Notes: generated from the sequence alone by a model not told the origin. A DNA stretch of 56,400 nucleotides from an uncultured Candidatus Saccharibacteria bacterium (GCA_964602465.1 CAZRQQ010000002.1:1-56400); one strand, 5' to 3'; positions 2,932-20,853 are shown, counted from the stretch's first letter. A program made the numbers and translations.

Positions 2932-2945
2932 TACTCTCACAAAAG

Positions 2946-2967
2946 ATCCCTGAAAGGGGATTTTTTG
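2946..2967 (+). terminator. rho-independent terminator after fusA
   Basis: atccc-tgaaag-gggat hairpin followed by TTTTTT. Confidence 0.6.
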
Positions 2968-2968
2968 A

Positions 2969-2996
2969 TTGACAAAAATATAAAACCTGATACAAT
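2969..2996 (+). promoter_or_regulatory. sigma70-like promoter (TTGACA-16-TACAAT) for cassette ORF 3021
   Basis: Consensus -35 and near-consensus -10 elements. A 23-nt block TTGACAAAAATATAAAA is shared with 10114-10142. Confidence 0.5.
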
Positions 2997-3020
2997 AAAG
3001 CAAAAGCACAAGTAACAATT

Positions 3021-3512
3021 ATGAAGGAAGCAGAATCACTACTGACCCTCCCCAGGGTTATTTTTAACTCGATTGAACGGGTATGGATTACCGTAGAAAT
3101 GTTTGAGCCTGAATTGCTTAAAAACCATATCAGGTTTCAAAAACAAACGATCAACCTTCATGGAACACTATTTACTATTGCAGTATTGGAACAACAGTAC
3201 GCATTTGGAAAAGGTGTTTATGAATGTCAGTCCTTATACGGATTTGAACTATCCAAAGAAGAAAGAACTGCAATGTTGTTTCATTACCATGGTATTAAGG
3301 CAAACACAGAGCGTCCGTTGGTCGATCAATTTAAATTTGAGATCTACAACAATGACGCAAAGTATCAGCCGCTGTATCGTTGTGTTGAAGATCTTGCACG
3401 GCGTGCAGTTCGTAGAATATTATCTACTACTGCTGACATAACTAAGTCAAATGGGGTAATCATTCCGCTTTCTTTATCGGTTAAAGAAAAAAGAGAATTA
3501 GTAGCTGTATAG
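3021..3512 (+). CDS. hypothetical protein (AT-rich cassette between fusA and tuf)
   Basis: 163-aa ORF with its own promoter and terminator. No recognisable domain. Confidence 0.5.
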   Translation: MKEAESLLTLPRVIFNSIERVWITVEMFEPELLKNHIRFQKQTINLHGTLFTIAVLEQQYAFGKGVYECQSLYGFELSKEERTAMLFHYHGIKANTERPLVDQFKFEIYNNDAKYQPLYRCVEDLARRAVRRILSTTADITKSNGVIIPLSLSVKEKRELVAV

Positions 3513-5344: not shown

Positions 5345-5767
5345 ATGTTAAGTTTATATCTATACACTACTCAGATGAATAAAAAAGATTATGCAGTTTG
5401 GGGCACTATAAAAACAAATGTTCACAACAACAAAGAGCGACCGTTCTTCCACGAACGTGAAGTGTGGTTCTGCACACTTGGTGAAAATGTTGGATTTGAG
5501 CAAGATGGGAGAGGAGAAAACTACCTACGACCAGTGGTTGTTGTGAGGAAATTTAATAACGCAGTTTGTCTTGTTGTGCCTTTAACCAAAAATCAAAAGA
5601 AAGGAATACATTACTTTTCTTTTTCATATAAAGATGATCTCGTAAGTACTGCCATTCTTTCCCAGGTTCGTCTTATCGATGCAAAGCGTCTTGATTATAA
5701 ATCAGGATTTATTTCAGAAACTGATTTTGAAGCCCTAAAACAAAAACTCAAGCAATTGATTGCCTGA
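5345..5767 (+). CDS. PemK/MazF-fold toxin-like protein (start may be 5375)
   Basis: [31 protein letters not shown]...[13 protein letters not shown]...RLIDAKRL matches the Kid/PemK/MazF motif pattern (RPVL(I/V)V, VVPVTS). No antitoxin ORF is visible upstream. Confidence 0.5.
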
Positions 5768-5956
5768 GTTTTTGACTTTTTACCCCGAAGGGAGGGCCGA
5801 AGCCATTTGTACCAATAGTATATTCCTTCCATTAAAACAAGTCAATTTTCCCCGAAGGGAACGTGGGTAGTCCCAAATGCATATCTAGTATATCAAATTC
5901 CCCGAAAGTGGATTTTTTGTTTCCCCAAAAATTTTGTATAGTACACAAAAACATCT

Positions 5957-6169
5957 ATGCCAACAAAGAGACAGTTGTGGCAAAATTGGGCATCTGAATT
6001 TGAATATTTTAGAGGACAAGATCCCAGGACATATCAACCAAAAGGTCCAGTGTCAATGACGGGAGAAGTAATCGGTACTATCCAGATTAACCCGGCCACT
6101 GGAGATTTGAGGATCATTCCTACTCCTCCTTCCTCAACTGAAGAAGATTCCCAACCAATAAACCCCTAA
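5957..6169 (+). CDS. hypothetical small protein (C-terminus ...SQPINP)
   Basis: 70-aa ORF. Its C-terminus and the downstream ~60 bp are repeated at the next gene's end. Confidence 0.3.
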   Translation: MPTKRQLWQNWASEFEYFRGQDPRTYQPKGPVSMTGEVIGTIQINPATGDLRIIPTPPSSTEEDSQPINP

Positions 6170-6226
6170 CACCGGTTTGTTTTTGCTTTTGGAGAACGGT
6201 GTGCTAGGGTAAGTAAAAAATACACA

Positions 6227-6820
6227 ATGTTCAAATTATTCAAATTACATCAGTACGGTAATGACACGTACTATGCAATCATATGTAGCAACCCACTTTC
6301 AGAGGAGTTACTCCAGAAGCTGAAAGAGGTATTTGAAAAACTATCTTCTCTTTCGCAACAGGAATATGACCATGTATGGTTTAGGGTGTCGGGTTTTTTT
6401 AAAGAATTCACTGACAGCACCTGCAATGGCCTTGTTCATGAGACTTGCTCGCACCCACTCAATGAGGGAGCAAACTTTGATGAGGCAATACGTCCTTGGC
6501 AAAAATATGATTACGTAAACAAAAAGTACGTAGACTGGTATGGACCACTCATGACCAAAGGAGATCAGGATGAAGAGTTCAAAGCCGCGTACGAGTTTTC
6601 ATACCATGCATCTTTTCGGTCGTCACTACTTGCCGCAGGAGTTCCTGAAAAGGATATAGAAAAAAGTATTATCTTTGAGGTGACCGATTGCCGTGACTGC
6701 TACGAAACGAATCCATTTGATTTTGCACAGTGGGTACTAAAACAAACAAAATCGTTGGAATATATCAATGCACTACTTCTACCACCTGCTTCGCAGAGTA
6801 CTGAACCAACAAACCCTTAA
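6227..6820 (+). CDS. hypothetical protein (C-terminus ...STEPTNP)
   Basis: 197-aa ORF. No recognised domain. Confidence 0.45.
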   Translation: MFKLFKLHQYGNDTYYAIICSNPLSEELLQKLKEVFEKLSSLSQQEYDHVWFRVSGFFKEFTDSTCNGLVHETCSHPLNEGANFDEAIRPWQKYDYVNKKYVDWYGPLMTKGDQDEEFKAAYEFSYHASFRSSLLAAGVPEKDIEKSIIFEVTDCRDCYETNPFDFAQWVLKQTKSLEYINALLLPPASQSTEPTNP

Positions 6821-6872
6821 CACCGGTTTGTTTTTTGTTACAGAAATGGTAGGGTAAGGAAAACTCATTACA

Positions 6873-7394
6873 ATGAAAGATATATTAAAGAAATTACGTT
6901 TTCCGATGCTTATATCGGCACTACTCATCTGGCCGCTGTTTGATGACTTCTTTACCAATACATCGCCTGAACTTATAGACTTTGCCCAATCAAATCGTGG
7001 TATAGCACTACGAATGTTGCTTGCAACGATAGGTTTTTTGATCGCATGTTGGAGGCTGCTAGGTATAACCTCAAAGGTCACTCGAGTATTCCCCCGATAC
7101 CCTGCGTATCGGATAGGGTGGGATGATTTTACAGTAGTGATTATTCTTTTAGGATTCGCACTACTTGTTGCCTCACTGGTAGTAGTAGTGGCCCTACTTA
7201 AAGATGTATATTTCAATACCCATCCAGGAATAGTAATAGTTAAAATTGTATACCCTTGGGCAGTAGGCAGCTGCTATGTTCTTATTGGTATTTTTGAGTA
7301 TAAGTATCCATTACTTCTCAAACAGTACGAACGACCAAATATAAGCAGAAGAGAAATCGATAAGATCCTCAAATATAAAAGCATTTTGCGGTAA
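6873..7394 (+). CDS. hypothetical membrane protein
   Basis: 173 aa with several hydrophobic helices. Confidence 0.45.
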   Translation: MKDILKKLRFPMLISALLIWPLFDDFFTNTSPELIDFAQSNRGIALRMLLATIGFLIACWRLLGITSKVTRVFPRYPAYRIGWDDFTVVIILLGFALLVASLVVVVALLKDVYFNTHPGIVIVKIVYPWAVGSCYVLIGIFEYKYPLLLKQYERPNISRREIDKILKYKSILR

Positions 7395-9211: not shown

Positions 9212-10048
9212 ATGAAATCCTATAAACCTACAACCCAATCACGACGCAACACGCTCACGATCGAGTATCGTAAGTTCCTCACGCGTTCAAAGCCTGAGAA
9301 ATCTCTCACCAAGGGCAAGAAGCGCGCAGTCGGCCGCAACAACCTCGGTCGCATCACGACTCGTCACAAAGGAGGAGGCAACAAGCGCCTCTACCGTCTC
9401 GTCGACTTTTTGTACAACAAGCACAACATCCCTGCGCGCATTGCGTCAGTAGAATACGATCCAAACCGCTCTGCATTCATCGGTCTTGCGATCTACCGCG
9501 ATGGTGAGAAGCGCTACGTCGTCCTTCCAAAGGGGATCCAGGTCGGCACCACATTTACGGTCTCCGAAACTGCTCCTGTCGAACCCGGCAACCGTCTCCC
9601 GCTCAAGGCGATCCCTGCAGGTACCTTTGTATACAACATCGAGCTCAAGCCAGGTGCAGGTGCCAAGATCGTGCGCTCTGCAGGATCATTTGCTCAGGTT
9701 GTCGCGCAGCAAGACGGCTTCACCCAGCTCAAGCTTCCTTCTACTGAAATCCGCCGCGTCGCAGAACTCTGCTGGGCAACAGTTGGTACCGTCTCAAATG
9801 ATGAGAACAAACTTGTGAAGTATGGTAAGGCTGGTCGCTCAAGATGGAAAGGCATCCGTCCTACCGTCCGTGGTACTGCTATGAACCCAGTTGATCACCC
9901 ATACGGTGGTGGTGAAGGTGTACAAGGCCGTGGTACCAAGCGTCCCAAGACCCTCTGGGGTAAGGTTACTGGTGGCCGCAAGACACGCACCCCGAAGAAA
10001 TACTCCAACAAAGACGTCGTTACTCGACGCAAGGTTGGGAAGAAATAA
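9212..10048 (+). CDS. rplB: 50S ribosomal protein L2
   Basis: GRNN.GRITTRHKGGG and GGGEG motifs. Confidence 0.95.
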   Translation: MKSYKPTTQSRRNTLTIEYRKFLTRSKPEKSLTKGKKRAVGRNNLGRITTRHKGGGNKRLYRLVDFLYNKHNIPARIASVEYDPNRSAFIGLAIYRDGEKRYVVLPKGIQVGTTFTVSETAPVEPGNRLPLKAIPAGTFVYNIELKPGAGAKIVRSAGSFAQVVAQQDGFTQLKLPSTEIRRVAELCWATVGTVSNDENKLVKYGKAGRSRWKGIRPTVRGTAMNPVDHPYGGGEGVQGRGTKRPKTLWGKVTGGRKTRTPKKYSNKDVVTRRKVGKK

Positions 10049-10072
10049 TCTCCTCAAATACGAACTCACAAA

Positions 10073-10098
10073 AACCGCCCAAAAGGGTGGTTTTTGCT
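10073..10098 (+). terminator. rho-independent terminator after rplB
   Basis: aaccgccc-aaaa-gggtggtt followed by a T-run. Confidence 0.6.
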
Positions 10099-10113
10099 GC
10101 AATGGTTTTGATA

Positions 10114-10142
10114 TTGACAAAAATATAAAATTATGATATAAG
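10114..10142 (+). promoter_or_regulatory. promoter TTGACA-17-TATAAG; shares the TTGACAAAAATATAAAA block with 2969-2996
   Basis: Direct sequence identity of a 23-nt block to the fusA-tuf cassette promoter. Confidence 0.5.
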
Positions 10143-10184
10143 ATATGCAAATTCAAAATATTTTTTAACAACAAAAAAATCACA

Positions 10185-10778
10185 ATGATGACAGTATCAA
10201 GACAAACGGAAGAGTGGTTGAAACAAAATCAATTAACACTCTACAACCTCCTTAGTCTCGCCTTTGTGGCTCGAAGAACTTATGAGGATATGATGACAAA
10301 ACAAGCTCGGTGGCTCCCATCTTTACACCGACTTTTCATGGTAACTGAACTCGAAGAGTTTAGGCTTTCCGATGAAGAGTCTCAGAAGTACAACGATGAT
10401 AAGCAGACAAAGGCAAAAGTCCTTACTGATGAACTCATCGCAAGCTATCTGATAAAAGAGTGGAAGCAAACGGGCAAGTTGCCTGAAGAAAAGTATCTCC
10501 TTGTTACTGGAGAAAGAGCATCAAAGGATAAAACAGTCCTTACTGATCTCTTGATTAGAAAAATCAAAGGACAATCTGAAGATATTCCTATGGCTAAAAA
10601 TAATCAATCTACCAGCATCAACGGGGCCATTATTCCAACAGGTATTCTTAGTATTGCGACTACTGAAATAAAAACAGTACTGGAGTCTAAGAGTGGTGAT
10701 ATAGATCAATACCGAAAAACAAATGCAAAGGAATTAAAAAACCTTAGCATCATTCGTAGGAAATACTGCCACTATTAA
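10185..10778 (+). CDS. hypothetical protein (cassette in rplB-rpsS gap)
   Basis: 197-aa ORF, AT-rich. No recognisable domain. Confidence 0.5.
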   Translation: MMTVSRQTEEWLKQNQLTLYNLLSLAFVARRTYEDMMTKQARWLPSLHRLFMVTELEEFRLSDEESQKYNDDKQTKAKVLTDELIASYLIKEWKQTGKLPEEKYLLVTGERASKDKTVLTDLLIRKIKGQSEDIPMAKNNQSTSINGAIIPTGILSIATTEIKTVLESKSGDIDQYRKTNAKELKNLSIIRRKYCHY

Positions 10779-10803
10779 GGCGGGCGGTGAAGGATCTGCA
10801 ACT

Positions 10804-11451
10804 GTGAATATTACAGGAACATTTGGGCTCCATGCCATACAGGTACAAGTCAATACGGTACCAACCGCTCCTTTTATTTCAGGTCCAACATATGTTAAAC
10901 CTGGAGATACGTATTCTTTCGAGCTTCAGCGGCATACTCGTGACGATGTATATTGGGAAATTGAAAAAAACCCAACAGAAGTCGTTGGTATTCCAGATCT
11001 GCATGACAAAAAGAAGTATTCTGTAAAGGTTGAACCCGAGTGTAAGGATTGTGCTGTGACATTATATGTCAGGTTAAAAACCAACCGTTCGCTGGTCGCT
11101 CAAAAAAATATCAATATATTGGAAGCAGGTTCAAAAAAACAGCCTCCGATTATAAAGATAGGAAAGAAAGAGTATAGAATATCGAGCGGTGTGTATTTTC
11201 CTGAAACAGTTGCACAGGTTGATTATTTGTTCAACGAGTCGCAGGTATTGGAAATAGTTATCAATCCAATCCATCCCAGAATAAAAGACATGGGGTATAT
11301 GCAGTCCATGGACCATATATTGGCTGCAATAGCGAATGTTGCCATGATTGATCAGGTGTATGACAAACTGATTAATCCTAGTGAAGCACAAGGAATTGCC
11401 GAGAATTTTGTCGCTGTGATGAAAGACAGCTTGTTGAATAAAAAACAATAG
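10804..11451 (+). CDS. hypothetical protein (GTG start, possibly co-transcribed with 10185)
   Basis: 215-aa ORF directly downstream. No recognisable domain. Confidence 0.45.
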   Translation: MNITGTFGLHAIQVQVNTVPTAPFISGPTYVKPGDTYSFELQRHTRDDVYWEIEKNPTEVVGIPDLHDKKKYSVKVEPECKDCAVTLYVRLKTNRSLVAQKNINILEAGSKKQPPIIKIGKKEYRISSGVYFPETVAQVDYLFNESQVLEIVINPIHPRIKDMGYMQSMDHILAAIANVAMIDQVYDKLINPSEAQGIAENFVAVMKDSLLNKKQ

Positions 11452-11466
11452 ATTGCTCTTTACATC

Positions 11467-11494
11467 GAACCGGTTTCTACCGGTTCTTTTTATT
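11467..11494 (+). terminator. rho-independent terminator (gaaccggt-ttct-accggttc + T-run)
   Basis: 8-bp stem followed by TTTTTATTTT. Confidence 0.6.
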
Positions 11495-11522
11495 TTGACA
11501 AACCAATCCAGAGGAGTAGGAT
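11495..11522 (+). promoter_or_regulatory. cassette promoter TTGACA-16-TAGGAT
   Basis: Same architecture as 11980-12007 and 12560-12587. Confidence 0.45.
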
Positions 11523-11540
11523 AGGGAAAAAATTACAACT

Positions 11541-11942
11541 ATGAATATATCTGTTCATCCCCATGCGGGAAATCACACAGTCGACTCAGCGACGATCGTT
11601 GTGACAGGCAAAGATTTCAATATTATATTTAGAATCAACCCTCGAGGTGCCGTCGAAGTACAAAATGCTACAGATGTTTCTGCCACGATGCCATTTAAGG
11701 TACAACCAGATGGAAATATCGCACTTGATCCTAACTCTCGTGACCACGTAACTATCAAAGCCGGATTGGTGGGCATGGAAGGTGGGCCTGAGCTGAGTAT
11801 GACTGCACAAACATTGATGCAGCGACCTGTACATGTGATTACAAGTATAGGAAAGGGTACTCCGGTACTGAAAGTACGTGATGGAAGCGGTTGTTGGAAG
11901 CATGAAAACGTACTGGAATGGGCGCAAGAAGAGCGACAGTGA
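11541..11942 (+). CDS. hypothetical protein
   Basis: 133-aa ORF bracketed by a promoter and terminator. Confidence 0.45.
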   Translation: MNISVHPHAGNHTVDSATIVVTGKDFNIIFRINPRGAVEVQNATDVSATMPFKVQPDGNIALDPNSRDHVTIKAGLVGMEGGPELSMTAQTLMQRPVHVITSIGKGTPVLKVRDGSGCWKHENVLEWAQEERQ

Positions 11943-11949
11943 TACATCA

Positions 11950-11978
11950 AACTACTGAATAGTTCAGTAGTTTTTTAT
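11950..11978 (+). terminator. rho-independent terminator (aactactgaa-tag-ttcagtagtt + T-run)
   Basis: 10-bp perfect stem followed by TTTTTTATTTT. Confidence 0.65.
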
Positions 11979-11979
11979 T

Positions 11980-12007
11980 TTGACAAACTGGCGAGAGTGG
12001 GTAGTAT
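11980..12007 (+). promoter_or_regulatory. cassette promoter TTGACA-16-TAGTAT
   Basis: The TTG that the ORF track uses as the start of 11980..12525 is the -35 hexamer. Confidence 0.5.
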
Positions 12008-12027
12008 GGAGGAAAACATACCTTCAT

Positions 12028-12525
12028 ATGAAACAAAAAAGAAAAGTGCGTGCTGAAACATATCCAGCGAATGTGTTGGAAACCATCAACAAAAAGTTGA
12101 TCGACCGTATCTATACGGAAAAAAATAAATTTCTGGTAACACGTATAACAGATGCTTGTCTGGCTGCTTCGGCGAGTGATCTAAAGACACTCTTTGGGAG
12201 GCTTCCTGGTGCATATGACGGAGAGTTGATACATATCCTGTGCAATAAGCCTGGATCCAATCCTACTGGATTTCATATGGTCACCAAAACTCCCAAAAGG
12301 TTTGAGTTGCGGCGAGGTACCGAACTTATTGTCATACTTACTTCACCAAAAGAAATCTACAGTACTCATCATGAACCTGCTACAGCAAACGATATTGTTA
12401 TCAAAAAACAAACACGGTTCAAAAATCTGTTGAAGGAGCAGGGTATCAATCGAAGTAACTTCACCAGTTACGGCATCTTTTTGCTCGAACTGTGTTTTCA
12501 AACCAGGTCTTCCAAAATCGCATAA
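12028..12525 (+). CDS. hypothetical protein, paralog A (start revised to the ATG at 12028)
   Basis: In-frame ATG after a GGAGG. The internal block ACLAASASDLKTLFGRLPGAYDGELIHILC is similar to 12605 ALCLVAPPKELNKMFNGLRTYSASELAHILC. Confidence 0.5.
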   Translation: MKQKRKVRAETYPANVLETINKKLIDRIYTEKNKFLVTRITDACLAASASDLKTLFGRLPGAYDGELIHILCNKPGSNPTGFHMVTKTPKRFELRRGTELIVILTSPKEIYSTHHEPATANDIVIKKQTRFKNLLKEQGINRSNFTSYGIFLLELCFQTRSSKIA

Positions 12526-12531
12526 GTACAT

Positions 12532-12560
12532 AAACCCTTTTCAGTAGGGTTTATTTTTTT
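12532..12560 (+). terminator. rho-independent terminator (aaaccct-tttcagt-agggttt + T-run)
   Basis: Near-identical to the terminator at 600-623. Confidence 0.65.
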
Positions 12561-12587
12561 TGACAAAAAAGCCTAGGTGAGTAGTAT
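12560..12587 (+). promoter_or_regulatory. cassette promoter TTGACA-16-TAGTAT
   Basis: Third copy of the promoter architecture. Confidence 0.5.
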
Positions 12588-12604
12588 GAAGAAAAATTAA
12601 AAAC

Positions 12605-13159
12605 ATGAAAAGACCATATAAGTTTTTGCAGGACAAAGATTTCTCCTGTAGCGACATCACACCATCGTATGTTGATGCTATATACAAAGAAAGAGGTGAT
12701 GGTAATCTTGCTCAATACATCACAGCGCTATGTCTTGTTGCTCCACCGAAAGAACTCAATAAGATGTTTAATGGTTTACGAACGTATTCTGCAAGTGAGC
12801 TTGCGCACATTCTGTGTGCTGAAACTGCTTCGCGTGCGGTGAATAAATTTACAATACAAAACCGACAAGCAACTCAATTTGATCTATTTCGGAACGGCAG
12901 TCTCTTGAGAAGGTTTAAACAAAGGTGTCTCCACATTCCTACGTTTAATCAAAAAAAATCTGAACAAGAAATTGCACCCGAAGAATTTCAGAGCCTTCTT
13001 GTGCAACACGGTATTACTGAGAGTATTCTTGCTGAATGCTTGATTAAGCCAGTACCACCTCCGCCATATCTGTACAATATTCCCGAATGGAATGCTGTAG
13101 TTACTCCGGTGTACCGACCACTACGGCACATAGATCATCTCAAAGCCCTTTCAGCGTAA
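12605..13159 (+). CDS. hypothetical protein, paralog B of 12028..12525
   Basis: Shared motif ...ELxHILC... with the upstream gene. 184 aa. Confidence 0.5.
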   Translation: MKRPYKFLQDKDFSCSDITPSYVDAIYKERGDGNLAQYITALCLVAPPKELNKMFNGLRTYSASELAHILCAETASRAVNKFTIQNRQATQFDLFRNGSLLRRFKQRCLHIPTFNQKKSEQEIAPEEFQSLLVQHGITESILAECLIKPVPPPPYLYNIPEWNAVVTPVYRPLRHIDHLKALSA

Positions 13160-13187
13160 TGAAGGGGCTTTTGTTATACTTAGCGGT

Positions 13188-13580
13188 ATGGAAAAACTAT
13201 CAGAGCGAAAGCGGTTTTCGATCATTGCACGGGCGCGGAGTTTCCGGCATGCGCTTCGGGGGATTGGGATCATATTCAAGACGCAGCACAATGCGTGGAT
13301 CCATGGGGTTGCAGCGGTAGTAGTTATCGGACTTGGACTCTGGCTCAAGATTAGTGCAGGGGAATGGGCGGGGATCCTCCTATCGGTGACGAGTGTGCTT
13401 GCCGCAGAAGCATTCAATACTGCCGTAGAGATAGACATCGATCTCACGAGCCCTAATTATCACCCTTATGCGCGGGACACCAAGGACGTCGCCTCTGCTG
13501 CAGTGCTCATTACTGCTCTCGGAGCAGCGCTGGTTGGGATTGTGGTGTTTGTACCCAAGCTTTTCGTGCTATTTTCATAA
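13188..13580 (+). CDS. dgkA: diacylglycerol kinase / undecaprenol kinase family protein
   Basis: 130 aa with three TM helices. Conserved EAFNTAVE and SAAVLI motifs typical of DgkA. Confidence 0.7.
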   Translation: MEKLSERKRFSIIARARSFRHALRGIGIIFKTQHNAWIHGVAAVVVIGLGLWLKISAGEWAGILLSVTSVLAAEAFNTAVEIDIDLTSPNYHPYARDTKDVASAAVLITALGAALVGIVVFVPKLFVLFS

Positions 13581-13636
13581 ATCTTCGGCCGCAGTCGTTT
13601 AGATTTTCATCATACTAGTACGGGTAGTATACGTAC

Positions 13637-13900
13637 ATGTTTTACGTGTATTGTTTGGAAAGTAAGGTTCGAGAACGCGAACTGTATTTTGGATGCACTA
13701 CCGATTTGAAACGTAGATTGATTGAACATAATACTGGACTTAACAAATCCACAAAACGCTACATACCGTGGAAGCTTATTTACTATGAAGCCTGCCTATC
13801 GGAGGTTGATGCATACCGAAGGGAGGAATACCTAAAAACCAGTACCGGAAGGAGGATGTTTTCAAGGAGAATTAGTGGGTATTTGAGGGGCCGGATTTGA
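13637..13900 (+). CDS. GIY-YIG nuclease family protein (stand-alone, UPF0213-like)
   Basis: FYVYCL...YFGCTTDLKRRLIEHN is the GIY-YIG motif. 87 aa. Confidence 0.8.
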   Translation: MFYVYCLESKVRERELYFGCTTDLKRRLIEHNTGLNKSTKRYIPWKLIYYEACLSEVDAYRREEYLKTSTGRRMFSRRISGYLRGRI

Positions 13901-13977
13901 CCCGGAAGTGAGCCTTGGCATAGTACTCCGTACAGACGCGGCTTTGCCGCAATGCCAAGATCTACTTCCGGGTTGAC
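13900..13977 (+). repeat. structured 78-nt repeat element, copy 1 (hairpin module ending in -35 TTGAC)
   Basis: cccggaagtgagccttggcat...atgccaagatctacttccggg is a long imperfect inverted repeat enclosing gtac-tcc-gtac and gcggc-ttt-gccgc hairpins. About 95% identical to 20055-20134. Confidence 0.8.
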
Positions 13978-14000
13978 ATTGGCGCTCAATTTGCTACTAT
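13973..14000 (+). promoter_or_regulatory. promoter TTGACA-16-TACTAT for rpsS segment, overlapping the repeat's end
   Basis: -35 formed by the last bases of the repeat. Confidence 0.45.
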
Positions 14001-14038
14001 ACTCGCAGCTCAAAACGGGCTTCTTTTTTTCCTAGACT

Positions 14039-14383
14039 ATGACACGATCACTTGCAAAAGGTCCCTATATTGACGAAAAGCTCCTCAAGAAGATTGCGGG
14101 CAAACAACCACTCTCAGCAGGGGTTATCAAGACGTGGGCACGTGCAAGTCAGATCGCGCCTGAAATGGTCGGATTTACCTTTGGAGTCCACAATGGCCGC
14201 CAGCACCTCGAAGTCCTCGTTACCGAAGACATGGTAGGTCACCGCTTGGGAGAATTTAGTCCAACTCGCAAATTTACCCGCCACGGTGGAAAGATGCAGA
14301 AGGAAATCGACCAGAAGAAAAAGGAAGCTGAAATCACTGCTGCAAAGGCTGCAAAAGCGACTACTACCGAAGCTAAGAAATAA
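14039..14383 (+). CDS. rpsS: 30S ribosomal protein S19 (with Lys/Ala-rich C-terminal extension)
   Basis: GPYID..L...I...R.S.I.P.MVG....VHNG motif. Confidence 0.9.
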
Positions 14384-14385
14384 GT

Positions 14386-14772
14386 ATGAAAGCAACACTC
14401 TCCAACTATCGCCAATCACCGCGTAAAGTCCGCCTCGTCACTGATGCGGTCAAGGGCAAGACTGTTGCCGATGCTGACACGACGCTTACCTATCTCGTAA
14501 AGCGTGGCGCGCTCCCGATCCAAAAGCTCGTGAAGAGTGCAGTTGCAAATGCAGTTGCAGCAGGCGCTGATGCGGACACGCTCATGATCAAGAACATCGA
14601 AGTAAACAAGGGCTTTGTGCTCAAGCGCTCTATCCCTCGTGCGATGGGTCGTGCAACGCCGATCAATAAACGAACCTCGCATATCACCGTAACGCTAAGC
14701 GAAGTTCGTAATACCCAAGTTCCAAGCACCAATAAGCAAAAAGGTCGCAAGGCAAGGGCAAAGGCCGAATAA
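14386..14772 (+). CDS. rplV: 50S ribosomal protein L22
   Basis: L22 signature and position. Confidence 0.9.
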   Translation: MKATLSNYRQSPRKVRLVTDAVKGKTVADADTTLTYLVKRGALPIQKLVKSAVANAVAAGADADTLMIKNIEVNKGFVLKRSIPRAMGRATPINKRTSHITVTLSEVRNTQVPSTNKQKGRKARAKAE

Positions 14773-14802
14773 TGATTATTGGAATTTGAGTATTAACCAT
14801 TT

Positions 14803-15474
14803 ATGTCTAAAGTTGTCCACCCATATTCACATCGTCTCGTTATCCTCCGTGATTGGAAGTCACGCTGGTTTGCAATGGACAAAAAGTATGTCGCAAATCT
14901 CAAGGTTGACGTCGCACTTCGCGAATACCTCGACAAGCGTCTCCGTGGGTCATACCTATCGAGTACTGAGATCGAACGCGGTCAAAACATGATCCGCGTG
15001 ATCCTTCGCACCTCTCGCCCCGGTATGATCATCGGACGTAGTGGTGAAGGTGCAACCAAGCTCAAGGCAGATATCCTCAAAGAGCTCAAGCGCAAAAAGC
15101 TCGCGGTGACTGAAGACATCAAGCTCGAAATCGTGGAAGTAACGAGTCCTGACTCTGATGCAAAGCTCGTTGCGTACATGATCGCCGAAGGCCTCGAAAA
15201 GCGTCTCCCATACCGACGCGTGATGAAGCAGCTTATCGAAAAGGTGATGGCAGTGCGTGGTGTACAGGGAGTGAAGTTCTACCTCGGCGGACGTCTTGGT
15301 GGTGCTGAAATCTCACGAAGTGAAGTGCTCAAGCGTGGCTCTATCCCGCTTCAGACCTTCCGTGCAGATATCGACTTTGCCCGCGAGCGTGCAACGCTTT
15401 CCTACGGTGTGATCGGCATCAAAGTATGGATCTACAAGGGTCAGGTCTTTGATACTGACAAAAAGAGTAAATAA
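14803..15474 (+). CDS. rpsC: 30S ribosomal protein S3
   Basis: KH domain and S3 C-terminal motifs (GRLGGAEI.R). Confidence 0.93.
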   Translation: MSKVVHPYSHRLVILRDWKSRWFAMDKKYVANLKVDVALREYLDKRLRGSYLSSTEIERGQNMIRVILRTSRPGMIIGRSGEGATKLKADILKELKRKKLAVTEDIKLEIVEVTSPDSDAKLVAYMIAEGLEKRLPYRRVMKQLIEKVMAVRGVQGVKFYLGGRLGGAEISRSEVLKRGSIPLQTFRADIDFARERATLSYGVIGIKVWIYKGQVFDTDKKSK

Positions 15475-15476
15475 CT

Positions 15477-15893
15477 ATGCTATTCCCAAAGAAAGTAAAA
15501 TTTAGAAAGTGGCACAAGAAGCGAACCAAGATGGAGGATCGCGTCGAAACACGTGGTACCAAGGTCAACTTCGGCTCACATGGGCTCAAGACCGAATCAC
15601 TCGCGCGCATCACCTCAAACCAGATCGAAGCTGCCCGCAAAGCTGCATCACGCCACCTCGGCAAGACTGGTCGTATGTGGATCCGTGTCTTTCCAGACCG
15701 ACCAATCACCTCAAAGCCTGCCGAAGTACCGATGGGCGGAGGAAAGGGCGACCTCCAAGGGTATTGCATGGAAGTGCTCCCAGGCCGCATCATCTTTGAA
15801 GTGGATGGGGTCGAAGCAGGAGTCGCAAAAGAAGCGCTTCGCAAGGCTGGTACCAAGCTCCCGCTCAAGACTCGAGTCGTCGAGCGCGTCTAG
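15477..15893 (+). CDS. rplP: 50S ribosomal protein L16
   Basis: R.GKG....W motif. Confidence 0.93.
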   Translation: MLFPKKVKFRKWHKKRTKMEDRVETRGTKVNFGSHGLKTESLARITSNQIEAARKAASRHLGKTGRMWIRVFPDRPITSKPAEVPMGGGKGDLQGYCMEVLPGRIIFEVDGVEAGVAKEALRKAGTKLPLKTRVVERV

Positions 15894-15933
15894 TTGGACA
15901 AAACCCAAAAAATAAGTACTATACTCACACATT

Positions 15934-16182
15934 ATGAAATCTGAAACCACACACAAACACATACTCAAAGGGACCGTTGTCTCTGACAAGATGGATAAGA
16001 CCGTCGTGGTTTCTGTTACGCGCTTTGTGAAGCATCCCAAGTATCAAAAGTACTTCAAGATCTCCAAGAAGTTCAAGGCGCATGATGAAGACAACAGTGC
16101 GAAAGTGGGGGATTTGGTCGAACTCAAAGAAACTCGTCCTCGTTCAAAGGATAAGCACTTCGAAGTAATCAAACAGAGTTAA
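15934..16182 (+). CDS. rpsQ: 30S ribosomal protein S17
   Basis: GTVVSDKMDKTVVV...HDE..SAKVGD.V.L.ETRP.SK motif. No rpmC between rplP and rpsQ. Confidence 0.88.
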   Translation: MKSETTHKHILKGTVVSDKMDKTVVVSVTRFVKHPKYQKYFKISKKFKAHDEDNSAKVGDLVELKETRPRSKDKHFEVIKQS

Positions 16183-16186
16183 TTGT

Positions 16187-16558
16187 ATGTTGCAAGATGG
16201 ATCAATCGTAAAAATCACAGACAATGCCGGCGGACAAATCGGTAAGATTTTCAAAGTGCTCGGTGGTTCAAAGCGCCGCTATGCAGGTATTGGGGATGTG
16301 GTCGTGCTCTCAGTCAAAGTCGCGCAGCCTCGCAAGGCCGTGAAGAAAAAGGACGTACTCTACGCAGTAGTGGTGCGCCAAAAGAACGCCTTTCGTCGCA
16401 AGGATGGTTCATACATTCGCTTTGATGACAATGCAGTGGTGATCATTGACAAGGGCAAGAAAGAACCGAAGGCTGGTCGTATCTTTGGTCCAATCCCGCG
16501 TGAGATCGGTGAGCTCGGCTATCAGAAAATCGTATCACTCGCACCGGAAGTGCTATAA
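16187..16558 (+). CDS. rplN: 50S ribosomal protein L14
   Basis: MLQ..S...DN.G motif at the N-terminus. Confidence 0.95.
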   Translation: MLQDGSIVKITDNAGGQIGKIFKVLGGSKRRYAGIGDVVVLSVKVAQPRKAVKKKDVLYAVVVRQKNAFRRKDGSYIRFDDNAVVIIDKGKKEPKAGRIFGPIPREIGELGYQKIVSLAPEVL

Positions 16559-16570
16559 CGAGTTACTACT

Positions 16571-16816
16571 ATGCATGTAAAGAAAGGAGACAACATTATC
16601 GTGATCGCAGGTAAGCACAAGGGCGCCAAGGGTACCGTTGGGCGTGTCACTGGCGAGCGCGTCATCGTCGACGGTGTAAATAAAGTGAAAGTGCACATCC
16701 GCGCAAAGAAAAAGAACGAAAAGGGTTCAGTCGTAGAACGCGAAGCGTCGATTCATCACTCAAACGTAAAGCTTGCTGAAAAGAAGGCGAAGGCATCTAC
16801 AAAGGTAGCAAAATAA
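16571..16816 (+). CDS. rplX: 50S ribosomal protein L24
   Basis: KOW motif KKGD.I.VIAGK.KG..G.V. Confidence 0.85.
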   Translation: MHVKKGDNIIVIAGKHKGAKGTVGRVTGERVIVDGVNKVKVHIRAKKKNEKGSVVEREASIHHSNVKLAEKKAKASTKVAK

Positions 16817-16826
16817 TTTACATACT

Positions 16827-17354
16827 ATGGAACTCATCAAGTCACAACAAGATAGCGCATACAAGACTCTCGGGTACAAGACCAAGCTTGCGGCACCGCG
16901 ACTCACCAAGATCGTGATCGCAAGTGGTACCGGTACTGGGATGAAGAAAGACCGCAACAAAAACGAAGCGATCATGGATCGTCTTACGAAGATCACTGGC
17001 CAGCGTCCAACCGTTCGTGCAGCAAAGAAATCAGTCGCATCATTTAAGGTTCGTCAAGGTGACCCGATCGGTGTTGCAGTAACCCTTCGCGGCGCACGCA
17101 TGTACCATTTCCTCGATAAACTCATCCACATTGCAATTCCTCGCACTAAGGACTTCCGTGGTATCGACCCTAAAGTTGTCGACACGATCGGCAACCTTAC
17201 GCTCGGCATCAAGGAGCACACGATCTTCCCAGAAACGTCTGACGAAGATCTCAAGGATGTGTTTGGATTTGCCATCACACTTGTCTCAACTGCAAAAGGC
17301 AAAGACGAAGCACTCAAATTCTTCACCCACCTCGGTATTCCGTTTAAGAAGTAA
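16827..17354 (+). CDS. rplE: 50S ribosomal protein L5
   Basis: L5 signature and position. Confidence 0.93.
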   Translation: MELIKSQQDSAYKTLGYKTKLAAPRLTKIVIASGTGTGMKKDRNKNEAIMDRLTKITGQRPTVRAAKKSVASFKVRQGDPIGVAVTLRGARMYHFLDKLIHIAIPRTKDFRGIDPKVVDTIGNLTLGIKEHTIFPETSDEDLKDVFGFAITLVSTAKGKDEALKFFTHLGIPFKK

Positions 17355-17365
17355 TACTACAAAAT

Positions 17366-17397
17366 AAAAATCACTCAATCGAGTGATTTTTATTTTT
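17366..17397 (+). terminator. rho-independent terminator after rplE
   Basis: aaaatcactc-aatc-gagtgatttt followed by a T-run. Confidence 0.65.
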
Positions 17398-17514
17398 TCC
17401 ACATCACGAGTAGGTGATTGGTGATAGCATGCTATACTATTCAGTATATTTTTGTACTGAGATATCCACTACTTTCTCTACTACACTATTTGTGTTGCGT
17501 GATATACTTTCAAG

Positions 17515-20055
17515 GTGAAATCTTTTAGTAGTTTTTTTAGTACACACAAACGAACACTTGCTGCACTTTTGTTTGGCCTCGCGTTTTCGGCGACTGTTGC
17601 GTTTGCAGTACCACCGAGTACTGAGTACAGTCCAGGCGAGACACTTGATCCAAACTGTGCGCCAGGAGATACCAACTGCGCGGTCATTCCCACCGCGTCT
17701 GCGATCGAAGATGGTGCAGTAGAAATCGCTGACTTTTCGGCAAGCGGCACACCGAGTGCAAGTACGTTTTTGCGTGGAGATAACACATGGGCAACTGTTT
17801 CGGGGAGCGGTACAGTCACGTCATTTGCATTTACCAACGGTGGCGGATTCACTGGCAACGTCAGCAACGCCACCTCAACTCCTACGCTCTCGCTTACACT
17901 TCAAGATGCTGTAGCTGATGGCTCAACTAAGGGTGCTGCAGCATTTACCGCAGCAGATTTTAATGCATCAAGTGGGCTCATTTCTATAGACTATACCAAC
18001 GGTCAGGCAGCATCAGGTTCGACCAAGGGATTCCTTACTTCTGCTGACTGGACGACGTTTAACGGTAAGGAAAGTGCACTCACGTTTTCTATTGGACTTA
18101 CACGTACTACTAATACAATCACCGTTAACACTACACAAAACATTGCCAAACTTTCAAACCTTACTTCAAACGGCTTTATTAAGACATCGGGGAGTGACGG
18201 TACGCTCAGTGTTGATACCAGTACCTATCTTACAGGTAACGAGGCTATTACTCTTTCGGGGGATATATCTGGGAGTGGTACTACCACAATCACAACTACG
18301 ATTGGATCTGGTAAAGTCACGAACACTATGCTTGCTGGCTCGATCACTGCAGCAAAACTCGTAGGAACCGATATTGCAACAGTGGGTACTATCGGTACGG
18401 GTACGTGGCAAGGCACGGTCGTGGGTGCAACCTACGGAGGTACTGGTGTAAACAATGGGTCAAACACGATAACACTTGCGGGCAATCTCGTGACGACTGG
18501 GGCGTTTAATACTACGTTTGCAGCAAGCGCGACGGGGACCTATACTCTCCCTAGTGCGACTTCGACGCTTTTGGCAAACAATCTCGGGATTAGTGGCGGG
18601 TCAACACTGGTCGGAGGAACAGGATCTGGTGAAAACCTCACACTTTCTTCAACGAGTAATGCAACTAAAGGTAAAATCATCTTCGGATCTGCCTCAGCGT
18701 ATGACCAAGTCAACGATCGATTTGGAATTGCACAGACCACCCCATTAGCAAGACTTCATGTGCAGCGTGATGCAATAGGTGCCACCCAAGATGATTCATA
18801 CGGTATCTTGTTGCAAAACTCAACGGCAGCAGCAGCGGGCGCACAGCAGTATTCACCATCGATCGTATTTGCAGGAAATGGATGGAAATCAAGTGCAACT
18901 GCAGCGAGTCAAGATGTACGGTTTCGTATTTATAATAGTCCTGTGCAAGGTGCGGGCTCCGCATCCGGGTTGTTGAATTTTGAGTCAGCACTTAATGGTG
19001 GTGCATACACCACGCTCATGACACTATCAAGTGCACAAGCATTGAGCTTAAACAGTGCCGGAACGATTTTTATTGGATCAGGTCTGGCTTTGACTAATGT
19101 TACCGCTCAAGTACCAACTGTATTTGGTGGCACTGCGGTGAGCTCATCACTTACACTTAAATCAACGAGCGGTGTCGGATCTTCGGACTTCATCCGTTTT
19201 CAGGTCGGCAACAACGGTGCAACTGAAGCAATGCGTATCATCACTTCTGGATTTGTGGGTATTGCCAATACTGCTCCTGGAGTCGCACTCCACATCGGTT
19301 CGTCGTCAACCACTGACGCTACAACACTTCTTCGTCTCCAAGACTCAAACTCTACCTGTAACTTCACTGCAGATTCTGGTGCGCCAACGTGTGGATCTGA
19401 CCGCACCCTCAAGAAAGATATCGAATCCATGGATAATGCCGACCTCCTTGCTCGGGTATCTGCACTCAATCCAGTGACCTATCGATGGCTTACTGATACT
19501 GATGATGCAAAACTCCAGCATGGGTTCATTGCACAAGAAGTAGAAGAACAATTCCCGGAGCTTGTGACCGAGAATGTCTGGGGTGATGGCACCATGCGCA
19601 AATTCCTCAATATTGGCGGTCTCATGCCGTATGCGATCGGTGCGATCAAGCAAATGAATCTCCAGATCGTTGGCATTGCAGATCTAGGCACAACCAACAC
19701 TTGGCGTGATAGCTTACTTGCATGGTTTGGAAATGCAGGCAACGGCATAGAGTCTTTCTTTAGTAAGAAGGTTACGACGAGCGAGCTTTGTGTAGGGGAC
19801 GAGACTGATCAGGTTTGTGTCACCAAAGATCAGCTTCGAACACTCTTGCAGCAGGGGGGAAGTGCATCAGTTGCGCCAATAGTGATTCCAGATCCAGTGC
19901 CAGAGGAGGCTACCGGAGAGACGCCTGAGGAGACACCGGTCGAAGAGACTGTGACCCCAGAACCAGAGGCTATAGAACCTACACCAGAGCCAGAACCGGC
20001 TCCAGAACCCACAGCCCCTGAGGCTCCGGCAGAAGCTCCTGCTCTTACCGAATAA
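17515..20055 (+). CDS. secreted tail-fibre-like surface protein with C-terminal intramolecular chaperone (peptidase S74-type) domain and Pro/Glu/Thr-rich tail
   Basis: N-terminal signal/anchor MKSF...AFSATVAFA. Long Gly/Ser/Thr-rich repetitive body. C-terminal TCGSDRTLKKDIESM...LNPVTYRW....HGFIAQEVEEQFPELV matches the endosialidase/tail-fibre autoprocessing chaperone domain. PEPEPAPEP tail. Confidence 0.7.
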   Translation: MKSFSSFFSTHKRTLAALLFGLAFSATVAFAVPPSTEYSPGETLDPNCAPGDTNCAVIPTASAIEDGAVEIADFSASGTPSASTFLRGDNTWATVSGSGTVTSFAFTNGGGFTGNVSNATSTPTLSLTLQDAVADGSTKGAAAFTAADFNASSGLISIDYTNGQAASGSTKGFLTSADWTTFNGKESALTFSIGLTRTTNTITVNTTQNIAKLSNLTSNGFIKTSGSDGTLSVDTSTYLTGNEAITLSGDISGSGTTTITTTIGSGKVTNTMLAGSITAAKLVGTDIATVGTIGTGTWQGTVVGATYGGTGVNNGSNTITLAGNLVTTGAFNTTFAASATGTYTLPSATSTLLANNLGISGGSTLVGGTGSGENLTLSSTSNATKGKIIFGSASAYDQVNDRFGIAQTTPLARLHVQRDAIGATQDDSYGILLQNSTAAAAGAQQYSPSIVFAGNGWKSSATAASQDVRFRIYNSPVQGAGSASGLLNFESALNGGAYTTLMTLSSAQALSLNSAGTIFIGSGLALTNVTAQVPTVFGGTAVSSSLTLKSTSGVGSSDFIRFQVGNNGATEAMRIITSGFVGIANTAPGVALHIGSSSTTDATTLLRLQDSNSTCNFTADSGAPTCGSDRTLKKDIESMDNADLLARVSALNPVTYRWLTDTDDAKLQHGFIAQEVEEQFPELVTENVWGDGTMRKFLNIGGLMPYAIGAIKQMNLQIVGIADLGTTNTWRDSLLAWFGNAGNGIESFFSKKVTTSELCVGDETDQVCVTKDQLRTLLQQGGSASVAPIVIPDPVPEEATGETPEETPVEETVTPEPEAIEPTPEPEPAPEPTAPEAPAEAPALTE

Positions 20056-20134
20056 CCCGGAAGTGAGCCTTGTGGCATAGTACTCCGTACAGACGCGGCT
20101 TCGTCGCAATGCCAAGATCTACTTCCGGGTTGAC
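20055..20134 (+). repeat. structured 80-nt repeat element, copy 2
   Basis: Direct repeat of 13900-13977 with a 2-nt insertion. The inner hairpin change gccgc to gtcgc keeps pairing through a G·U. Confidence 0.8.
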
Positions 20135-20158
20135 TCCGGGCGCATACTCTGATAGGAT
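20130..20158 (+). promoter_or_regulatory. promoter TTGACT-17-TAGGAT for rpsN segment, overlapping the repeat's end
   Basis: Same arrangement as copy 1. Confidence 0.4.
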
Positions 20159-20261
20159 AGGCGAGTCCTTTGGTAATCCGCACTTTTCTCTCTGAGCGAA
20201 CCTTTGTAAGGAAATTCAGAGAAATCAGTACGCGATATTCCAGAGAACATCCACAAATAGT

Positions 20262-20447
20262 ATGGCAAAGACCTCAACAGTCGTGCGCTCCCAAAAGGCG
20301 CCAAAATTTAGCACTCGACAAGTCAACCGCTGCTTCCGCTGCGGTCGTCGTCATGGCTACATGCGCGATTTCGGACTTTGCCGTATCTGCTTCCGTGAAC
20401 TTGCCAACGACGGCATGATCCCGGGTATTCGAAAGTCTTCTTGGTAA
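20262..20447 (+). CDS. rpsN: 30S ribosomal protein S14 (zinc-binding type Z)
   Basis: 61 aa with [20 protein letters not shown]. Confidence 0.9.
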
Positions 20448-20457
20448 TGAGTTTTCT

Positions 20458-20853
20458 ATGGTAACCGATCCTATTTCAAACATGATCATCTCGATGAAAA
20501 ACGGCGCACTGGTGTCCAAGGGCACCGTGGTTATTCCGTTTTCAAAGCTCAAGTACGCGATTGCGCAGTGTCTCAAAGACAATGGCTACATCGCTGAAGT
20601 GTCCAAGAAAACTGAAAAGAAAAATGTGCCAGTACTTGAGATCGAGCTCGCGTACAATGGTGGTGCGTCGCGCATCCATGATGTAAAGCGCATATCAAAG
20701 CCTTCACGCCGCACCTACCTCGGTGTGCACGATATTCACTCTGTGAAAAACGGTCACGGCATGATGGTGCTTTCTACTCCGAAGGGCATTCTTTCTGACA
20801 AGCAAGCGCGCAAGGAGCAGGTCGGCGGAGAAGCGTTGTTTATGATTTGGTAA
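20458..20853 (+). CDS. rpsH: 30S ribosomal protein S8
   Basis: DPI...I..I.N motif at the N-terminus. Confidence 0.93.
   Translation: MVTDPISNMIISMKNGALVSKGTVVIPFSKLKYAIAQCLKDNGYIAEVSKKTEKKNVPVLEIELAYNGGASRIHDVKRISKPSRRTYLGVHDIHSVKNGHGMMVLSTPKGILSDKQARKEQVGGEALFMIW

Follow-up and report, generated by a model that had tools for sequence, protein, structure and literature searches.

Few neighbouring genes in prokaryotes are as well conserved in their adjacency as those for ribosomal proteins L2 (rplB) and S19 (rpsS), and this adjacency, together with the S10/spc gene order, is a near-universal anchor in phylogenomics, binning, and models of operon evolution. In the 56,400-nucleotide stretch of DNA analyzed here (GCA_964602465.1, CAZRQQ010000002.1:1-56400; hereafter the window), which is deposited under an uncultured Candidatus Saccharibacteria bacterium, the end of rplB at 10048 and the start of rpsS at 14039 are separated by 3,990 nt that hold seven open reading frames (ORFs), all on the plus strand: five hypothetical genes, termed iA to iE, followed by dgkA and a gene for a GIY-YIG protein. 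How does such an interval come to lie, and to persist, within the ribosomal gene row? An earlier reading, made from the sequence alone, had described a ~4-kb, seven-gene accessory island that splits the pair, and had proposed that the five hypothetical genes could form one uncharacterized system, possibly for defence or host interaction, carried in a ribosomal hot spot. The interval and the hot spot were borne out by our analysis, whereas the single system was not. We consider it probable that the interval has long served as a permissive "safe harbour" that separates independently transcribed ribosomal blocks, and that its content is a palimpsest, neither one system nor a recently landed island.

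The source genome belongs to the Patescibacteria (candidate phyla radiation, CPR) and is of the Paceibacteria/Parcubacteria type, from an ultra-small groundwater organism; the L2 proteins of the nearest public genomes are 85–89% identical to that of the window. Four contigs from other samples or assemblies (L001, L139, L140, and L141) are 99.97–100% identical to the window over the parts of the island that each of them covers, indicating that the gene arrangement is real and is not an assembly artefact.

The loci around 80 L2 homologs were taken, and the ribosomal proteins of the window were mapped onto them. Relatives with an L2 identity of at least 61.5% to the window are called closer relatives, and those below this value distant relatives. 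In the closer relatives, the L2–S19 spacer exceeded 300 nt in 31 of 42 loci, 1 kb in 21, and 2 kb in 15, with a maximum of 5.7 kb, and in eight further closer relatives S19 was absent within 1.8–10 kb downstream of L2. In contrast, none of the 19 distant relatives had a spacer of more than 130 nt. The junction between L5 and S14-S8 behaved in the same manner, exceeding 600 nt in 21 of 33 closer but in none of 13 distant relatives, whereas the S10–L3 junction was open beyond 600 nt in both groups alike (11 of 46 closer and 5 of 16 distant). Within the blocks, seven of the 11 junctions tested, including L3-L4, L23-L2, S19-L22, S17-L14, and S8-L6, never exceeded 300 nt, and the other four rarely did so. 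One relative, L009, has no island between L2 and S19.

The cargo of the L2–S19 gaps is mostly unrelated between genomes. When 137 gap ORFs were clustered with 11 window proteins, 101 of the 148 proteins were singletons. Pfam matches in the gaps of the relatives comprised dgkA (eight times), DEAD/ResIII helicases, polysaccharide deacetylases, glycosyltransferases, and pilin-like proteins, as well as L10 with L7/L12 (inside the gap in two relatives), AbiEii, AhpC, pyruvate kinase, FtsW, BacA, and PIF1, so that the cargo is a mix of housekeeping and accessory functions. In addition, five genomes whose L2 proteins are 98–100% identical (L016, L017, L018, L087, and L089) carry different genes after L2, indicating that the turnover takes place at the strain or species level. 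The same core interval thus holds differing accessory genes in related genomes. These results strongly support the conclusion that the L2–S19 junction is a clade-wide hot spot, one of three to four fixed breaks in the ribosomal row with rapid turnover of cargo, which is broader than the hot spot originally proposed.

The seam itself carries conserved regulatory signals. The promoter of rpsS (TTGACw-N16-TACTAT with a TG upstream) and the leader hairpin with its U-run are kept in seven genomes, including the island-free L009, and a hairpin equivalent to the terminator-like one 3' of rplB follows L2 in L009. Because L009 has both the L2 terminator and the S19 promoter, the L2–S19 seam would already be a terminator-promoter boundary in the absence of an island. 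The rpsS leader (window 14001–14038, hairpin 14007–14021; also in L004, L006, L008, L009, L011, and L084) keeps its hairpin while the stem sequence varies, and the predicted transcription start lies immediately before the hairpin and U-run. The leader may serve the S19...L5 block as an attenuator, or as an autoregulatory element to which a ribosomal protein binds. Rfam gave no relevant match at E ≤ 1 in 9900–20500, which covers both this leader and the hairpin element described below.

Promoter-like and terminator-like sites, in four pairs, also separate most of the genes inside the island (Table 1). The terminator-like hairpins behind iB, iC, iD, and iE all have a T-run, and in the first three of these spacers the promoter-like site comes immediately behind the hairpin. 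The 17-mer TTGACAAAAATATAAAA, which the sequence-only reading had recognized as a shared promoter at the island start, is found exactly twice in the window, at 10114 and at 2969 (2969–2985, upstream of an ORFan between fusA and tuf). The five best intergenic promoter matches in 4.8–20.6 kb are those in the island spacers and that of rpsS, and the iB–iC spacer is 76% identical to the spacer before the iE-like gene of L006. These features suggest that the island genes form separate promoter-gene-terminator units.

Table 1. Features of the rplB–rpsS interval and its surroundings (window coordinates unless a locus is named)
Feature	Position	Strand	Basis
rplB (ribosomal protein L2), closes L3-L4-L23-L2 block	9212..10048	+	ORF; Pfam Ribosomal_L2_N/C on identical L001 gene; 53–89% identity to 80 relatives
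Terminator-like hairpin and T-run 3' of rplB (ACCGCCC-AAAA-GGGTGGT, TTTTT)	10070..10097	+	read from sequence; absent from terminator-scanner list
Promoter-like site before iA (TTGACA-N17-TATAAG)	10114..10142	+	promoter-consensus match
iA	10185..10778	+	ORF
iB, putative relic of GHKL-ATPase gene	10738..11451	+	tblastn/blastp homology
iB, annotated ORF	10804..11451	+	GTG start 10804
iB–iC spacer: predicted terminator 11467-11486, promoter 11495-11522 (TTGACA-N16-TAGGAT)	11467..11522	+	consensus match
iC	11541..11942	+	ORF, 133 aa
iC–iD spacer: predicted terminator 11949-11973, promoter 11980-12007 (TTGACA-N16-TAGTAT)	11949..12007	+	consensus match
iD	12028..12525	+	ORF
iD–iE spacer: predicted terminator 12530-12554, promoter 12560-12587 (TTGACA-N16-TAGTAT)	12530..12587	+	consensus match
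iE	12605..13159	+	ORF
Terminator-like hairpin overlapping iE end	13142..13171	+	scan
dgkA	13188..13580	+	Pfam DAGK_prokar
GIY-YIG gene	13637..13900	+	Pfam GIY-YIG, 87 aa
MITE-like element copy 1: inverted-repeat body 13901-13972, TTGA flanks 13897-13900 and 13973-13976	13897..13976	+	repeat, fold, flank tests
Predicted rpsS promoter (TTGACA-N16-TACTAT, 13973-14000) and leader hairpin/U-run (14007-14030)	13973..14038	+	conserved in 7 genomes
rpsS (S19), opens S19...L5 block	14039..14383	+	ORF; tblastn 67–96% identity to relatives
MITE-like element copy 2, directly after 846-aa tail-fibre-like gene, abutting promoter-like site before rpsN (S14)	20056..20129	+	95% identical
Intact three-gene module: ~212-aa partner, 660–675-aa HATPase_c_3/MORC-like protein with Ig-like C-terminal domains, ~300-aa protein	L016 12082-15727; L087 10001-13626; L089 295-3915		

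As the sequence-only reading had stated, the five hypothetical genes are AT-rich and encode proteins without a recognizable domain. Their GC content is 40% and their GC content at third codon positions (GC3) is 0.32–0.39, compared with 0.48–0.60 for the ribosomal genes and 0.54 for dgkA. None of iA to iE had a significant match in Pfam, PHROGs, PADLOC, or NCBIfam, neither long hydrophobic segments nor signal peptides nor transmembrane (TM) segments were found in the proteins, and the families had no relatives among the viral contigs scanned.

For iA, homologs were found in only three clusters among 5.8e9 proteins (P0021, P0023, and P0024; 30–32% identity), which makes a family of four together with iA. 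All of these homologs are followed by an overlapping gene for a 660–675-aa protein with a HATPase_c_3 domain (GHKL, MORC-like) and then by a gene for a ~300-aa protein, which is split into two ORFs in L089; this GHKL module lies directly downstream of L2 in L016, L087, L088, and L089. Residues ~4–190 of iA are homologous to the partner family, and the last ~8 codons are unrelated to it. This tail appears to be GHKL-derived DNA read in the wrong frame, and iA would be a diverged, 3'-truncated copy of the partner gene. A helix-turn-helix in iA, suggested by visual inspection alone, is not claimed, since PDB searches with profiles returned nothing but irrelevant PsaF matches.

For iB, the search among the 5.8e9 proteins returned only iB itself, whereas tblastn and blastp aligned it to residues ~427–646 alone (the Ig-like and C-terminal region) of the 660-aa GHKL proteins, with 26–28% identity and E values from 1e-12 to 1e-14. 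The homology extends in the same frame 57 nt 5' of the GTG start, to 10747, and a stop codon at 10735–10737, inside iA, closes this frame. Examined as a GHKL/MORC-like ATPase (PF13589, HATPase_c_3), iB had no Pfam match and the part with the Bergerat fold has no counterpart in it, whereas a full-length relative matches HATPase_c_3 at residues 40–118 (E = 2.8e-8). On the simplest reading of these alignments, iA and iB would be the remains of a ~1.3-kb deletion in which the partner gene lost its 3' end and the ATPase gene its first ~427 codons, the whole ATPase domain among them.

The intact GHKL protein showed weak matches to the ATPase domains of MORC2-4, sacsin-type proteins, MzaB, and TmtA. 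Against PADLOC, the intact module gave no system above noise, the matches to the TmtA ATPase domain being faint (14–17 bits), and iA to iE gave no match in PADLOC-DB v2. Between genomes whose ribosomal proteins are 96–100% identical, the partner is 51–55%, the GHKL protein 81–85%, and the 300-aa protein 42–59% identical. Fast divergence of this kind is typical of conflict systems, and the intact module of partner, GHKL protein, and 300-aa protein is a candidate for a new one. The defence role that had been suggested for the island is plausible only for this intact ancestral module, which evolves very fast; in the window, the module has decayed.

The remaining three hypothetical genes have other distributions. 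Two true homologs of iC, with 28–32% identity, were found among 1.84e9 representatives (P0005 and P0011), the other matches being repeat-rich giant proteins that were judged spurious. The homolog P0005 belongs to another genome and is a solitary gene there, with a tRNA-synthetase gene on one side and tsaD on the other. iC is predicted to be all-beta, and its AlphaFold2 (AF2) model is poor (predicted local distance difference test score, pLDDT, 52.6). By its distribution, iC appears to be a solitary ORFan. iD and iE are tandem paralogs (27% identity) of a lineage-restricted family that numbers five proteins in total, and in L084 an iE-like gene lies together with dgkA between L2 and S19. These comparisons suggest that iE is an old resident of the L2–S19 junction that accompanies dgkA, and that iD is a tandem duplicate of iE. 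The five hypothetical genes do not, therefore, co-occur as the proposed single system would: iA-like genes are found only with the 660–675-aa GHKL ATPase, iE-like genes with dgkA, and an iC-like gene alone.

For dgkA, the Pfam match (PF01219) spans profile positions 1–102 of 102 with 110.4 bits against a cut-off of 22.3 (E = 4e-32). Among the first 80 relatives, nine have dgkA in the L2–S19 gap, as does L084, and there it mostly adjoins rpsS. Its codon composition is core-like, which makes dgkA the stable resident of the seam. The contrary case, that the island genes are widespread housekeeping genes located here in all relatives, applies only to dgkA and not to iA to iE.

The GIY-YIG protein matches PF01541 over residues 1–72 with 53.2 bits against a cut-off of 22.6 (E = 4e-14). 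It does not have the make-up of a homing endonuclease: its 87 aa hold the domain only, the gene is free-standing and intergenic, and the NCBIfam model grpIintron_endo gave 15 bits against a cut-off of 56. We take it to be of the small stand-alone type (YhbQ/COG2827-like) rather than a homing endonuclease with a DNA-binding domain. No GIY-YIG homolog was found by tblastn in the L2–S19 gap of any relative searched, and the dgkA–S19 spacer is only ~55–170 nt in L004, L005, L008, and L084, suggesting that the GIY-YIG gene was added later in the lineage of the window.

The distal end of the island consists of a structured 78-nt repeat and the restart promoter of rpsS, as noticed in the sequence-only reading. 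The repeat (13900–13977) is 95% identical to a second sequence at 20055–20134 and has a predicted fold of −41.8 kcal/mol (z = −8). A covariance model built on four copies of the element detected eight plus-strand copies in four genomes: two in the window, four in L043 (before tuf, in the S10–L3 junction, before rpsS, and after L5), and one each in L016 and L017, upstream of GIY-YIG genes. The stem has 23 predicted pairs, of which nine show compensatory changes. A pattern scan of metagenomes yielded 48 more loci, chiefly from groundwater and sediment, in which the neighbouring genes lie on both strands and have diverse functions; this variation in strand and function disfavours a dedicated role as terminator or leader RNA.

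The element measures 60–95 bp and has inverted termini of the form CC(N)GG(T/A)AGT...ACT(A/T)CC(N')GG. Of 41 distinct copies, 21 are flanked by exact direct repeats that are 4 nt or longer, and 28 by repeats of 3 nt or longer. In 5000 permutations of the flanks, repeats of 4 nt or more were seen in 2.35 copies on average and in nine at most, and when the boundaries were displaced by 2–4 nt, the signal was gone (count 0). Complementary flanks were not enriched among the 41 copies. Ten of the 21 duplications were TTGA/TCAA or TTTGA. A short, non-coding, multi-copy element with terminal inverted repeats and target duplications of varied sequence has the features of a MITE (miniature inverted-repeat transposable element), and the 78-nt repeat is best classed, on these features, as a MITE-like element with a 4–5-nt target duplication and a preference for TTGA. 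Its 4–5-bp duplication and "CC" ends presumably indicate a likeness to the IS1380 family. No cognate transposase was seen in the loci examined, and no whole-genome search for one was made.

In copy 1, the 5' TTGA overlaps the stop codon of the GIY-YIG gene, and the sequence reads TTGA-element-TTGAca, in which the downstream TTGACA is the −35 hexamer of the conserved rpsS promoter. In L009, L006, and L084, this −35 site is unoccupied. The flanks of copy 2 are degenerate (ATAA and TTGA). Since insertion prefers TTGA, copies of the element would come to abut TTGAC −35 hexamers, and since the target duplication restores the TTGA of the −35 box, insertion would regenerate the rpsS promoter.

Other identities for the element were considered and rejected. 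A function as a terminator does not fit L043, in which two copies directly follow canonical terminators, and a leader RNA for ribosomal proteins does not fit the neighbouring genes on either strand in the metagenomes. An attC-like site is disfavoured since the ends do not match attC core sites and no integrase lies nearby in the window or the loci examined, the metagenome loci being unscreened. The flanks as a mere extension of the stem (GUUGAC can form G-U pairs) are excluded as a general explanation by the diversity of the duplications (TCCA, TATCA, CAAG, TAGA, and others).

In six loci (L016 174–547, L017 2366–2769, L097, L102, L106, and L120), the element lies 17–75 nt upstream of small GIY-YIG genes, and in the window (13637–13976) it lies directly downstream of one. 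This association may be a mere effect of promoter targeting or may point to a functional link.

The sequence of events that we favour for the safe harbour is as follows. The clade's row would be partitioned into four blocks, S10, L3-L4-L23-L2, S19...L5, and S14-S8..., and inserted DNA would leave ribosomal expression undisturbed because a terminator closes L2 and S19 is served by a promoter and leader of its own. Within the L2–S19 interval, genes would be gained, replaced, duplicated, and eroded. dgkA and the iE-family gene, common with relatives, would be old residents, and iD would have been duplicated from iE. The partner and GHKL genes would have lost ~1.3 kb internally, and the ATPase domain with it, to become iA and iB, with the solitary ORFan iC as a further constituent. 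The small GIY-YIG gene would have been added beside the S19 promoter, after which the ~80-bp MITE-like element would have transposed into the TTGA of the −35 box, its duplication rebuilding the box. The turnover is most likely driven not by an integrase but by homologous recombination within the ribosomal genes on either side, whose conservation is high; we infer this mechanism from the match to the mobile-element-free hot spots of Oliveira et al. (below).

Several points weigh against this history. The transcription units rest on consensus matches, and the total number of promoter-like sites in the region is not above that in shuffled sequence. The low GC3 of iA to iE could equally point to a foreign origin. 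iB is still an open frame of 215 codons within AT-rich DNA, so that a residual function of iB is possible, and the iA/iB pair may either have descended vertically from the locus of the L016 group or have been transferred in. No strain-level polymorphism was seen in the population, the contigs of the other samples all being identical.

The proposal that iA to iE make up a single uncharacterized multi-gene system, serving defence or interaction with a host and lodged in the ribosomal operon, draws on the fact that the genes are co-directional, contiguous, AT-rich, and without known domains, on the divergence of the ancestral GHKL module, which is far faster than that of core genes and resembles that of conflict systems, and on genes of the toxin type at the sister junctions, namely PemK in the window and AbiEii in relatives. 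However, predicted terminator-promoter pairs split iB, iC, iD, and iE from one another, the families are never found as a set and each has its own distribution, iB is truncated and lacks the ATPase domain, iD and iE are paralogs, neither the island genes nor the intact module have PADLOC matches, and the signs of surface proteins (signal peptides and TM segments) were not found. We regard a single system as quite improbable. A recent mobile genomic island or prophage remnant, for whose insertion site-specific recombination or the GIY-YIG nuclease would be responsible, would agree with the GC3 below that of the flanking genes, with the GIY-YIG gene and the mobile hairpin element at the distal end, and with a contig from another sample (L002) that breaks right after L2. 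It is nevertheless improbable: ORF, Pfam, PHROG, and tRNA scans revealed no integrase or other recombinase, no transposase, no tRNA, and no phage-like genes in or beside the island, no direct or att repeats bounding it were found, iA to iE have neither viral homologs nor PHROG matches, and their phylogenetic distribution is mosaic. Furthermore, the iE-dgkA pair and the iA-GHKL pair occupy the same junction in relatives, which suggests that much of the island content is old.

That the genes reside here through functional coupling to ribosome synthesis, being co-regulated with it or acting on the ribosome, would be more surprising still. The position of dgkA, kept in at least 10 relatives, its core-like codon composition, and two relatives in which the genes for L10 and L7/L12 have moved into this gap speak for such a coupling, whereas the genes' own predicted terminators and promoters would insulate them, the cargo of the relatives is heterogeneous (glycosyltransferases, helicases, pilins, pyruvate kinase, and toxins), and iA to iE are ORFans that are absent from most relatives. 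An assembly or binning chimera might be suspected from the metagenome-type genome and the composition shift at the island borders, but it is next to impossible, given that four contigs of independent origin (other samples, other assemblers) agree across the junctions and that independently assembled relatives have the same kind of insert.

The safe harbour has a counterpart in the hot spots described by Oliveira, Touchon, Cury, and Rocha (2017; PMC5635113), who tied hot spots free of mobile elements to natural transformation and to homologous recombination of the core genes on their flanks. In both cases, a fixed interval between core genes collects accessory genes, turns over rapidly, lacks an integrase, and holds degraded remnants. 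Unlike those hot spots, the flanks here are rplB and rpsS, and the interval is among three or four fixed breaks of the ribosomal supercluster in a whole CPR clade; the word "ribosomal" does not occur in the text of PMC5635113. Compared with the S10/spc operons of E. coli, the ribosomal gene order is the same from S10 through L6, whereas this clade cuts the row at S10–L3, L2–S19, and L5–S14 and the E. coli type cuts it at S17–L14, and a separate conserved promoter and hairpin/U-run leader precede rpsS here. The unusual point is thus the location of the hot spot inside the S10/spc supercluster, at seams off the E. coli operon boundary. No published description of an interruption of the ribosomal cluster in CPR was found in the literature. 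The hot spot may account for the flagging of Patescibacteria translation genes by island predictors (PMC12455944).

Neisseria Correia elements are MITEs that lie upstream of genes and interact with promoters (reviewed in PMC10969869). Like these, the element in the window is small and non-coding, has terminal inverted repeats, target duplications, and a long hairpin, and exists in many intergenic copies, often just upstream of genes. It differs from them in its size of 60–95 bp, its CC(N)GG(T/A)AGT termini, and its 4–5-nt duplication with a TTGA preference that would regenerate −35 hexamers, and covariation of its arms, seen at 9 of 23 pairs, preserves the pairing. With regard to the MORC-like/HATPase_c_3 conflict ATPases, the intact relative of iB shares with them the HATPase_c_3 domain, a small upstream partner gene, and fast evolution, whereas iB lacks the ATPase fold altogether. 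The Ig-like/helical C-terminal region of the intact module and its 300-aa protein have no known relatives.

The window itself reveals no new biochemical system. What it reveals is that a whole CPR clade re-partitions the ribosomal cluster into four blocks, which are predicted to be separately promoted, with the seams serving as high-turnover gene storage; the seams mark where the lineage-specific genes of reduced symbionts accumulate, and contiguity should not be assumed when Patescibacteria genomes are scaffolded or curated. Two new objects emerge as well: a MITE family that would target −35 boxes and is widespread in groundwater metagenomes, and the fast-evolving module of partner, GHKL protein, and 300-aa protein. 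A more far-reaching version, which we rate as rather unlikely, is that the S10–L3, L2–S19, and L5–S14 breaks are evolved "landing pads" of the Paceibacteria clade, at which the near-invariant ribosomal genes would act as universal homology arms, CPR cells that are genome-reduced and naturally competent would swap lineage-specific cargo across species without an integrase, and the restart promoters would be rewired by the MITE, which seeks out −35 boxes. If so, among the cargo of these pads would be large surface proteins of the tail-fibre-like kind and a MORC-like GHKL conflict module that is new and evolves fast.

In the window, the ribosomal row is broken at four places, fusA–tuf, S10–L3, L2–S19, and L5–S14. 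The fusA–tuf interruption (2930–3512) holds a 163-aa ORFan without a Pfam match, with a terminator ahead; it is preceded by the promoter sequence ATTGACAAAAATATAAAA, the same as that of iA, and the two proteins are unrelated. The interruption between rpsJ (S10) and rplC (L3) at 5345–7394 holds a PemK/MazF-type toxin gene (5345–5767, GC3 0.29), beside which no obvious antitoxin ORF was called, and hypothetical genes at 6227–6820 and 6873–7394, the latter with a hydrophobic segment. Between rplE (L5) and rpsN (S14), at 17515–20055, lies a gene whose 846-aa product has tail-fibre matches in PHROGs and contains the endosialidase chaperone domain Peptidase_S74. In L032 and L038, homologs of this tail-fibre-like protein of 1,328 and 1,362 aa occupy the L2–S19 gap, suggesting that the same type of cargo uses different ribosomal seams.

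Among the relatives, genes for cell-envelope lipid-carrier functions recur in several gaps (dgkA, BacA, FtsW, glycosyltransferases, and polysaccharide deacetylases). In L087, in which S19 is absent within 10 kb of L2, a PAP2 gene lies downstream of L2, and the GHKL module is followed at 13626–18410 by ~4.8 kb that hold a LAGLIDADG ORF and otherwise no called genes; this stretch may be an intron-bearing rRNA gene that was relocated into the seam.

Elsewhere in the window, 42000–48000 is AT-rich (GC 0.33–0.39, compared with 0.447 for the whole window) and holds several long ORFs, and may be a further island. The LOOT RNA model of Rfam scores 51.7 bits at 56300–56400 (gathering score 46.4), the match being cut by the end of the window. 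ARAGORN detected a tRNA-Ile with the anticodon UAU at 36034–36111; such a tRNA is uncommon in bacteria, in which AUA is normally decoded by a lysidine-modified CAU tRNA.

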